Source: Giardia intestinalis
Taxonomy: Eukaryota
Reading direction: 5' to 3' (one strand)
Length of the DNA stretch: 64,000 nucleotides
Assembly: GCA_000002435.2 (NCBI GenBank)
Contig: CM018789.1
Positions 41,998 through 47,847 of this stretch are shown in pieces (the stretch's first letter is position 1; the number at the start of each line of letters is the position of its first letter). The position numbers and the translations under genes were made by a program. Below the pieces are notes generated by a model. That model had not been told where the DNA came from. It searched no databases and saw only the letters and a program-made list of their open reading frames with translations.

Positions 41998-44900
41998 CTA
42001 CGCCTTCCCGCGGCAGAGGAACCACCAACACAAGAAGCCAACAAGACCACCTACAACGATGACAGCAGCCACTGCGATACCTGCGATGGCGCCTGTAGAA
42101 AGGCCGCTACTCTTGTTTGTGTTGGGAATCACGCACGCGTCGCCCTGGAGCTGGTAGCCATTACCATCGTCGCACTTGCAGGCCTTCGCCGAGCCGGCAG
42201 CCGGGTCTATTACCTCTTCCGGGGCAGTGCAGGCGGCCTTGCAGCTCTTCTTGTTGGCCGCGACGTATTGCGCTTTATCCTTGCATGTAAGACAGGTTTC
42301 CCCGCCGCTCAAGTCGCACGTCTCGCACCCGGCCCCTTCCAGCGTCGGGCACGCGTTGGCCTGTCCCTTGACGCACGCGTCGCCCTGGAGCTGGTAGCCA
42401 TTACCATCGTCGCACTTGCAGGCCTTCGCCGAGCCGGCAGCCGGGTCTATTACCTCTTCCGGGGCAGTGCAGGCGGCCTTGCAGCTCTTCTTGTTGGCCG
42501 CGACGTATTGCGCTTTATCCTTGCATGTAAGACAGGTTTCCCCGCCGCTCAAGTCGCACGTCTCGCACCCGGCCCCTTCCAGCGTCGGGCACGCGTTGGC
42601 CTGTCCCTTGACGCACGCGTCGCCCTGGAGCTGGTAGCCATTACCATCGTCGCACTTGCAGGCCTTCGCCGAGCCGGCAGCCGGGTCTATTACCTCTTCC
42701 GGGGCAGTGCAGGCGGCCTTGCAGCTCTTCTTGTTGGCCGCGACGTATTGCGCTTTATCCTTGCATGTAAGACAGGTTTCCCCGCCGCTCAAGTCGCACG
42801 TCTCGCACCCGGCCCCTTCCAGCGTCGGGCACGCGTTGGCCTGTCCCTTGACGCACGCGTCGCCCTGGAGCTGGTAGCCATTACCATCGTCGCACTTGCA
42901 GGCCTTCGCCGAGCCGGCAGCCGGGTCTATTACCTCTTCCGGGGCAGTGCAGGCGGCCTTGCAGCTCTTCTTGTTGGCCGCGACGTATTGCGCTTTATCC
43001 TTGCATGTAAGACAGGTTTCCCCGCCGCTCAAGTCGCACGTCTCGCACCCGGCCCCTTCCAGCGTCGGGCACGCGTTGGCCTGTCCCTTGACGCACGCGT
43101 CGCCCTGGAGCTGGTAGCCATTACCATCGTCGCACTTGCAGGCCTTCGCCGAGCCGGCAGCCGGGTCTATTACCTCTTCCGGGGCAGTGCAGGCGGCCTT
43201 GCAGCTCTTCTTGTTGGCCGCGACGTATTGCGCTTTATCCTTGCATGTAAGACAGGTTTCCCCGCCGCTCAAGTCGCACGTCTCGCACCCGGCCCCTTCC
43301 AGCGTCGGGCACGCGTTGGCCTGTCCCTTGACGCACGCGTCGCCCTGGAGCTGGTAGCCATTACCATCGTCGCACTTGCAGGCCTTCGCCGAGCCGGCAG
43401 CCGGGTCTATTACCTCTTCCGGGGCAGTGCAGGCGGCCTTGCAGCTCTTCTTGTTGGCCGCGACGTATTGCGCTTTATCCTTGCATGTAAGACAGGTTTC
43501 CCCGCCGCTCAAGTCGCACGTCTCGCACCCGGCCCCTTCCAGCGTCGGGCACGCGTTGGCCTGTCCCTTGACGCACGCGTCGCCCTGGAGCTGGTAGCCA
43601 TTACCATCGTCGCACTTGCAGGCCTTCGCCGAGCCGGCAGCCGGGTCTATTACCTCTTCCGGGGCAGTGCAGGCGGCCTTGCAGCTCTTCTTGTTGGCCG
43701 CGACGTATTGCGCTTTATCCTTGCATGTAAGACAGGTTTCCCCGCCGCTCAAGTCGCACGTCTCGCACCCGGCCCCTTCCAGCGTCGGGCACGCGTTGGC
43801 CTGTCCCTTGACGCACGCGTCGCCCTGGAGCTGGTAGCCATTACCATCGTCGCACTTGCAGGCCTTCGCCGAGCCGGCAGCCGGGTCTATTACCTCTTCC
43901 GGGGCAGTGCAGGCGGCCTTGCAGCTCTTCTTGTTGGCCGCGACGTATTGCGCTTTATCCTTGCATGTAAGACAGGTTTCCCCGCCGCTCAAGTCGCACG
44001 TCTCGCACCCGGCCCCTTCCAGCGTCGGGCACGCGTTGGCCTGTCCCTTGACGCACGCGTCGCCCTGGAGCTGGTAGCCATTACCATCGTCGCACTTGCA
44101 GGCCTTCGCCGAGCCGGCAGCCGGGTCTATTACCTCTTCCGGGGCAGTGCAGGCGGCCTTGCAGCTCTTCTTGTTGGCCGCGACGTATTGCGCTTTATCC
44201 TTGCATGTAAGACAGGTTTCCCCGCCGCTCAAGTCGCACGTCTCGCACCCGGCCCCTTCCAGCGTCGGGCACGCGTTGGCCTGTCCCTTGACGCACGCGT
44301 CGCCCTGGAGCTGGTAGCCATTACCATCGTCGCACTTGCAGGCCTTCGCCGAGCCGGCAGCCGGGTCTATTACCTCTTCCGGGGCAGTGCAGGCGGCCTT
44401 GCAGCTCTTCTTGTTGGCCGCGACGTATTGCGCTTTATCCTTGCATGTAAGACAGGTTTCCCCGCCGCTCAAGTCGCACGTCTCGCACCCGGCCCCTTCC
44501 AGCGTCGGGCACGCGTTGGCCTGTCCCTTGACGCACGCGTCGCCCTGGAGCTGGTAGCCATTACCATCGTCGCACTTGCAGGCCTTCGCCGAGCCGGCAG
44601 CCGGGTCTATTACCTCTTCCGGGGCAGTGCAGGCGGCCTTGCAGCTCTTCTTGTTGGCCGCGACGTATTGCGCTTTATCCTTGCATGTAAGACAGGTTTC
44701 CCCGCCGCTCAAGTCGCACGTCTCGCACCCGGCCCCTTCCAGCGTCGGGCACGCGTTGGCCTGTCCCTTGACGCACGCGTCGCCCTGGAGCTGGTAGCCA
44801 TTACCATCGTCGCACTTGCAGGCCTTCGCCGAGCCGGCAGCCGGGTCTATTACCTCTTCCGGGGCAGTGCAGGCGGCCTTGCAGCTCTTCTTGTTGGCCG

Positions 44901-47847: not shown

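Follow-up and report, generated by a model that had tools for sequence, protein, structure and literature searches.

Can a surface-antigen gene consist of almost nothing other than one repeat copied without error, or does such a gene owe part of its appearance to the way in which it was assembled? The question is raised by a locus on chromosome 1 of Giardia intestinalis WB (assemblage AI), where a stretch of 64,000 nucleotides, here called the window, was analyzed. Within it lies the annotated variant-specific surface protein (VSP) gene GL50803_0050391 (XP_037901615.1, NC_051856.1), 5850 nt long and encoding 1949 aa, most of which is a tandem array with a 240-bp unit. Taken as a whole, the locus is best explained, and we hold this with high confidence, by a VSP gene built from an amplified module, in one unit of which the reference sequence carries a technical defect. 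GL50803_0050391 is real, has been annotated before and belongs to a familiar kind of gene. The tandem-repeat VSP design has been known since the 1990s; what is new is solely that one repeat of the reference appears to result from an error of sequencing or assembly.

The array comprises the following parts:

46777..47783, minus strand: N-terminal array block, 4.2 perfect copies (Tandem Repeats Finder score 2014; unit starts 240 bp apart).
46629..46776, minus strand: aberrant 148-nt segment in unit 5, which takes the place of 61 nt of the unit and encodes a 49-residue peptide; a probable consensus or assembly error.
42131..46628, minus strand: C-terminal array block, 18.7 perfect copies (Tandem Repeats Finder score 8996, and unit count).
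42131-42174, minus strand: partial last unit of 44 nt, running into the peptide IPNTNKSS.

Tandem Repeats Finder reports 100% matches and 0% indels in both blocks, with scores of 8996 and 2014 that are far beyond chance; the repeat is therefore no chance feature. Each unit measures 240 bp (80 aa, 64% GC) and encodes 10 Cys and two CXXC motifs, CETC and CLTC. The translated open reading frame (ORF) here agrees with the first-pass annotation of the stretch, which had further described about 23 repeats, perfectly identical over 5.5 kb and with zero divergence. The 240-bp unit and its identity in 22 complete copies hold up. The uninterrupted identity does not: the array is broken at 46629-46776, where the spacing of unit starts, otherwise 240 bp throughout, is 327 bp, and the unit concerned, the fifth from the N terminus, is aberrant. 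The gene is thus laid out as 66 nt of 5' end, 23.2 units (24.2 with the garbled unit restored) and a conserved stretch of 132 nt. On these grounds the earlier observation is partly confirmed and its interpretation partly supported; as a description it was largely right and missed one defective unit. That unit is the most informative point at this locus, and it supports the caution about the assembly that the same annotation had voiced.

What, then, is the segment in unit 5? It has a GC content of 78%, compared with 64% for the unit, and contains a run of 12 C (46635-46646) that is the only homopolymer of at least 9 bases in the 64-kb window. The encoded peptide is cysteine-poor and rich in Gly, Arg and Pro. 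Local alignment of the segment to the tandem unit yields matches and deletions only, with zero mismatches, and a score of 62.3 against 30.8 +/- 2.9 for dinucleotide shuffles (z = 10.8). All 148 of its 148 nucleotides are recovered in the longest common subsequence with the 301 nt expected for one further perfect unit, so that the segment is an exact subsequence of that expectation; dinucleotide shuffles put through the same test reach 134.2 +/- 1.7, with a maximum of 139. In other words, the segment equals the expected 301 nt minus 153 deletions, with 0 substitutions. Losses are biased by base, A (about 70% missing) and T (about 67%) being hit harder than C (about 51%) and G (about 34%).

Does this pattern describe a decayed repeat or a failed consensus? 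Biological decay would leave substitutions, and here 153 bases are deleted, none is substituted and 22 flawless copies stand alongside, which favors a consensus error. A deletion-only pattern of this kind looks like the failed consensus of error-prone long reads, and we consider it likely, on the pattern of the sequence itself, that the segment arose as an error of consensus or assembly in the PacBio-based reference. In that case the true number of full units is probably at least 24, one more than in the reference. The opposite reading takes the unit as real, a repeat that suffered many small deletions and was kept as a cysteine-poor, Gly/Arg/Pro-rich spacer in the ectodomain. It can draw on the facts that the unit is stop-free and in frame and that the RefSeq protein and the published sequence of the catalogue discussed below both include it. 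We judge it quite improbable nonetheless: a real decayed unit should carry substitutions too, whereas all 148 bases are a subsequence of the expected repeat; it would have had to undergo dozens of separate deletions and no point change beside 22 perfect units; it holds the only long homopolymer in 64 kb; and no other protein has the peptide of this unit.

Several considerations weigh against our interpretation. The case for an artefact is drawn from the pattern in the sequence. The segment is in frame (153 missing bases) and free of stops, as a genuine degenerate unit kept by selection would be too; frame and lack of stops coincide by chance with a probability of roughly 0.2 and therefore make no strong argument that the unit is real. 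No protein in a collection of 5.8 billion carries the peptide, and this is weak evidence, because the annotated protein itself is absent from the same collection. Surface expression and switching of GL50803_0050391 would follow by analogy with the VSP family. Finally, polishing with ambiguously placed reads could partly explain the identity of the units. In its fuller form this explanation holds that the real units differ at a few positions which consensus calling has averaged away, and it has some force since Quiver and Illumina correction would both depend on where reads are placed, and a tandem array that looks perfect leaves this ambiguous. We think it improbable, if less so than a real unit 5: repeat VSPs that were cloned and sequenced also have near-identical units (Adam 2010), and the allele of isolate DH at the same locus, from an independent 454 assembly, also contains 100% identical copies.

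How far can the number of units be trusted? The first-pass annotation had suspected that the assembler might have invented it. This suspicion gains from the deletion-only garbled unit within the array, evidence which that annotation had missed. The WB reference was assembled from PacBio RS II reads at 200x coverage with HGAP3, merging of overlapping contigs, PBJelly gap filling and Quiver, and its authors report homopolymer errors that were repaired with Illumina reads. None of these steps would be expected to work well inside a perfect tandem array. MluI (ACGCGT) cuts twice per unit, giving 46 sites in the array (42131-47783), and no other common six-cutter tested cuts the unit; the MluI optical map used in scaffolding WB therefore cannot size the array. 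Among Logan contigs from many WB-type runs, no short-read contig spans the array: they stop at the 3' end of the VSP gene (~41878-41997) and, on the other side, at ~51561 and ~49109. Logan contigs carrying the neighboring cathepsin B gene end at most ~120 bp from the VSP stop codon, which explains why short-read assemblies lack the gene. Adam 2010 cautions that assembled repeat numbers are approximate and that copy number differs between alleles, as documented for vspA6 and vspC5; by analogy with these two genes, the copy number of GL50803_0050391 would be expected to vary among alleles and clones. The copy number in the reference is unvalidated.

Could the assembled length as such be wrong? 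One may suppose that the array exists, that its assembled length is substantially off or represents one of several alleles, and that the aberrant segment marks a contig-end join or gap fill made in arbitrary register. The defect does lie within the array, 4.2 units from one end, in an assembly that merged overlapping contigs and used PBJelly; with 46 MluI sites the optical map is blind to the length of the array; the gene is missing from the list of repeat VSPs in the 2007 assembly; short-read contigs break on both sides of it; and vspA6 and vspC5 vary in copy number between alleles. Against this, some PacBio reads could plausibly span 5.7 kb at 200x (an argument from coverage, read lengths aside), and one extra in-register unit accounts exactly for the garbled stretch, suggesting that consensus calling failed locally and that no arbitrary join was made. 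We regard a wrong length as possible, yet clearly less probable than a local consensus error.

The gene that contains the array can be identified with some precision. It is printed in the supplement to the VSP catalogue of Rodriguez-Walker et al. (bioRxiv 10.1101/2022.03.07.483299), with 5850 nt, 1949 aa, the initiator 'taatgtt', 234 Cys and 45 CXXC. Nucleotide and amino acid sequences of this entry equal the ORF in the window, signal peptide, transmembrane segment, tail and Cys/CXXC counts agree, and the catalogue protein contains the same aberrant peptide as the ORF. The features of the gene outside the array are:

41998..47847, minus strand: coding sequence of GL50803_0050391 (XP_037901615.1), from ORF and translation, with ATG at 47847 and stop codon TAG at 41998-42000; matched by the catalogue and by the Pfam VSP profile.
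47843..47849, minus strand: initiator element TAATGTT around the start codon, read from the sequence and given as 'taatgtt' in the catalogue.
47806..47847, minus strand: signal peptide of 14 aa, by hydropathy; the catalogue lists the same sequence as predicted signal peptide.
47782-47805, minus strand: 8-aa linker KHNEKTAQ after the leader, by translation.
41998..42129, minus strand: conserved VSP 3' region, by translation, transmembrane hydropathy and Pfam profile; the same tail is found in vsp97 (P0002).
42016-42090, 42001-42015 and 41998-42000, minus strand: membrane helix (25 aa), CRGKA and stop codon TAG, by translation.
41967..41986, minus strand: extended VSP polyadenylation motif TACTTAGATAGTAAACGCGT, from the sequence, with AGTAAAC at 41971-41977.

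VSP membership is judged by a Cys content of about 11-12% with many CXXC motifs, by a T/CAATGTT initiator (the classes TAATGTT and CAATGTT were defined in Adam 2010) and by an extended polyadenylation motif after the stop codon. The protein has 234 Cys (12.0%) and 45 CXXC motifs, and the polyadenylation 20-mer is the one given for this gene in Table S6 of the catalogue (bioRxiv 10.1101/2022.03.07.483299). The Pfam VSP profile (PF03302) is matched over its positions 266-397 with 69.7 bits (cut-off 31.4), and the 268 homologues found in a homology search are essentially all Giardia VSPs. Pfam profile, signal peptide, Cys-rich ectodomain, transmembrane segment with CRGKA, initiator and polyadenylation motif are thus all present, and the gene had rightly been called a VSP from its sequence. 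The same is true of its leader and tail as first described. The signal peptide, called from hydropathy and the catalogue record, has a mean Kyte-Doolittle hydropathy of +2.85 against -2.55 for the charged stretch of 8 aa that follows, and its exact sequence is the signal peptide in the catalogue. The membrane helix has a mean hydropathy of 2.38; IPNTNKSS lies between the partial last unit and this helix, and CRGKA follows it. The leader (47803-47847) is identical in GL50803_0041626, a tandem-repeat VSP on another chromosome, and recurs with one change in CRP136 (GL50803_00103142), also a tandem-repeat VSP on another chromosome, and in GL50803_00101010. One or two GGCY motifs are present in many VSPs; none occurs in the 1949-aa protein, and none was seen by eye in five short VSPs (P0002-P0005 and P0007). 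GGCY is common in the VSP family, yet not universal.

The predicted product would be a type I membrane protein whose 14-aa leader is cleaved off; its ectodomain would be a string of at least 23-24 identical 80-aa modules of 10 cysteines each, followed by one transmembrane helix and the 5-residue cytoplasmic tail CRGKA. When it is the sole VSP expressed, such a protein would, as in the rest of the family, form the surface coat of the trophozoite and present one set of epitopes many times. The gene is catalogued among VSPs with unique peptides in re-analyzed proteomes (bioRxiv 10.1101/2022.03.07.483299); as evidence on surface expression and switching this is indirect.

Where else has this gene been recorded? 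Literature and RefSeq already cover tandem-repeat VSPs with their range of sizes and the copy-number variation of their alleles, and GL50803_0050391 itself as well. The gene is missing from the 2010 VSP list built on the Sanger assembly, in which 30 repeat VSPs have units of 105-516 bp and none of 240 bp; a literature search for a 240-bp VSP repeat found no paper; and neither the Be-2 paper nor the nanopore paper of Pollo 2020 mentions GL50803_0050391. An exact look-up of the 1949-aa protein in the collection of 5.8 billion proteins gave no record, the homology search found no copy of it, and no close copy (>76% identical) of the 80-aa unit is present in that collection. XP_037901615.1 is missing there, yet its neighbors KAE8301611 and KAE8301613 are included. 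XP_037901615.1 presumably corresponds to KAE8301612.1.

The strand opposite to the gene is open as well:

42268..47829, plus strand: antisense stop-free frame of 1853 codons, from the ORF list, with a TTG start; a by-product of the repeat, not a gene.

This frame, and its nature as a by-product, had been pointed out before, together with the idea that it would allow long antisense transcripts; frame and by-product are both borne out. Antisense and sense frames share their codon register, and the former has 0 stops per unit: the 80-codon unit contains no in-frame TTA, CTA or TCA, and for this reason the frame stays open across the array. From composition alone the chance of an open 80-codon antisense frame is ~0.2. 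No family matched the antisense ORF above threshold, the only match being a sub-threshold one to DUF3320. That a frame open over the whole array might function as a gene, or have been specially selected as template for long antisense RNA, is in our view extremely improbable, given this chance, the lack of an above-threshold family, the TTG start and the fact that transcription is independent of an ORF; antisense transcription needs none. The frame was rejected as a coding gene on account of its chance of opening and the missing family match.

From what did the array arise? The unit is 44-71% identical to the single ectodomain module of short VSPs (P0002, which is vsp97 or GL50803_10562, and P0003-P0005) and 34-61% identical to the units of repeat VSPs from other isolates (P0001, P0006 and P0008), and 9 Cys columns are invariant in the alignment of these 8 sequences. 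The C-terminal 43 residues of vsp97 match GL50803_0050391 exactly, and motif no. 12 is assigned to both proteins in the catalogue (bioRxiv 10.1101/2022.03.07.483299). The module is thereby shown to be homologous to the entire ectodomain of short VSPs such as vsp97. A one-module VSP may thus have been the starting point, its membrane-proximal module being amplified by unequal exchange or replication slippage between units; the homogeneity of the units would then be owed to recent expansion or to ongoing exchange. AlphaFold2 models one unit with low confidence (mean pLDDT 66). Foldseek of this model against the Protein Data Bank (PDB) returned only non-significant EGF-like matches (E > 0.6), and no PDB relative was found by sequence.

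Is the array a fixed property of this position on the chromosome? In isolate DH (assemblage AII; AHGT01000036.1, here L007) the flanks are 95.8% and 98.0% identical to the window. The alignment reaches 28 nt into the ORF (to window position 47820) and resumes at window position 42108. In between, the DH slot (L007 8001-8690) is occupied by a 225-bp unit in 2.2 perfect copies. The DH protein shares 90% amino acid identity with WB GL50803_00137717 from chromosome 5, and the DH unit only 34% with that of GL50803_0050391. In P15 (assemblage E; ACVC01000034.1, here L014, 6238-7977) the same slot holds an ordinary 579-aa VSP without tandem repeat. The cathepsin B gene adjoins the VSP in both isolates. 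The slot is conserved, its content is not. This comparison suggests replacement of the ectodomain cassette, with breakpoints in the conserved leader and transmembrane regions. That a whole ectodomain cassette was exchanged between closely related lineages at the chromosome-1 slot beside cathepsin B (~24 x 240 bp in WB, a 225-bp repeat in DH) we put forward as a tentative proposal, somewhat short of an even chance; alternatively, the DH allele could be a 454 contig that is chimeric through the conserved VSP ends. If true, ectopic gene conversion would here have moved repeat cassettes between VSP loci, with local amplification afterwards, in a case both clean and datable. On a small scale, the comparison with DH and P15 provides a testable instance of how cassettes turn over while the VSP slot stays fixed. 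A GS-B VSP (P0116) was considered as a further syntenic allele and dropped, as it does not adjoin cathepsin B.

The surroundings of the gene fix its place in the WB genome. Five neighboring proteins are exact matches to the WB C6 annotation (KAE8301606, 08, 09, 11 and 13), among them the one that serves as the anchor:

40637..41548, minus strand: cathepsin B CP1 (KAE8301611.1 / XP_001706373.1), an exact protein match, directly 3' of the VSP gene; used as anchor for the locus and for synteny with DH and P15.

Upstream of the VSP gene, about 4 kb (47848-51838) contain no convincing gene and only short ORFs rich in Arg, Pro and Ala. No more than a few Logan/ENA contigs contain the 276-aa ORF at 50418-51248, which has no Pfam match on record and no NCBI annotation. 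Regions around VSPs are gene-poor according to a published remark, which fits the ~4 kb seen here.

To the biology of VSPs this locus adds little, and its practical value is one of curation. The reference GL50803_0050391 (XP_037901615.1) very probably contains ~49 spurious residues, encoded by the 148-nt segment, and lacks at least one repeat, a defect that affects peptide databases, RNA-seq mapping and repeat counts. More generally, a perfect array in a long-read assembly can conceal a local consensus failure.

How does the gene compare with known repeat VSPs, of which WB has 36 among its 136 VSPs? The array had been placed at the extreme of the known range, with no unique ectodomain to go with it. 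This was overstated: vspC5 has the same plan, and GL50803_00137717, vspA6 and CRP136 lie in a similar range. The short clade III VSPs, vsp97 (GL50803_10562, P0002) among them, share one copy of the module (60-76% identity) and the identical C-terminal 43 residues; vsp97 differs in having a single module without repeats and another leader (MFAKLIF...). CRP136 (GL50803_00103142) has nearly the same leader directly before many repeats, with 1474 aa and 28 repeats in the new assembly, whereas its unit is of 120 bp (40 aa) and unrelated in sequence. Closest in size is GL50803_00137717 (vsp21 / AS7) on WB chromosome 5, with 5766 nt, 1921 aa, about 21-25 copies of a 225-bp (75-aa) unit of the 10-Cys type, and TAATGTT. 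This gene was under-counted in the 2007 assembly, at 3 copies and 646 aa. It differs in the sequence of its unit, the related DH unit being 34% identical to that of GL50803_0050391, and the lengths given in 2010 suggest that some hundreds of its residues may form a unique region. In vspA6 (CRP170, vsp67), about 23-25 near-identical repeats lie in a gene of ~5.6-6.8 kb; the vspA6 protein has 2259 aa, and its repeats are immunodominant. Unlike GL50803_0050391, which is without a unique ectodomain, vspA6 has a 195-bp unit followed by ~1.3 kb of unique ectodomain. The nearest counterpart in plan is vspC5 (vsp90) of WB, with a 66-bp 5' end containing the leader and repeats up to the conserved 3' region (Adam 2010), and its authors already noted that nearly all of the exposed protein is repeat. 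GL50803_0050391 shows the marks of this type: a short 5' end and head-to-tail, near-identical repeats that reach the conserved 3' region. The two differ in dimensions, since the vspC5 gene, slightly longer than 2 kb, has over 20 copies of a 105-bp (35-aa) unit, against 5.85 kb, ~24 copies and 240 bp. The array of GL50803_0050391 is at the upper end of the known range of VSP repeats, not beyond it.

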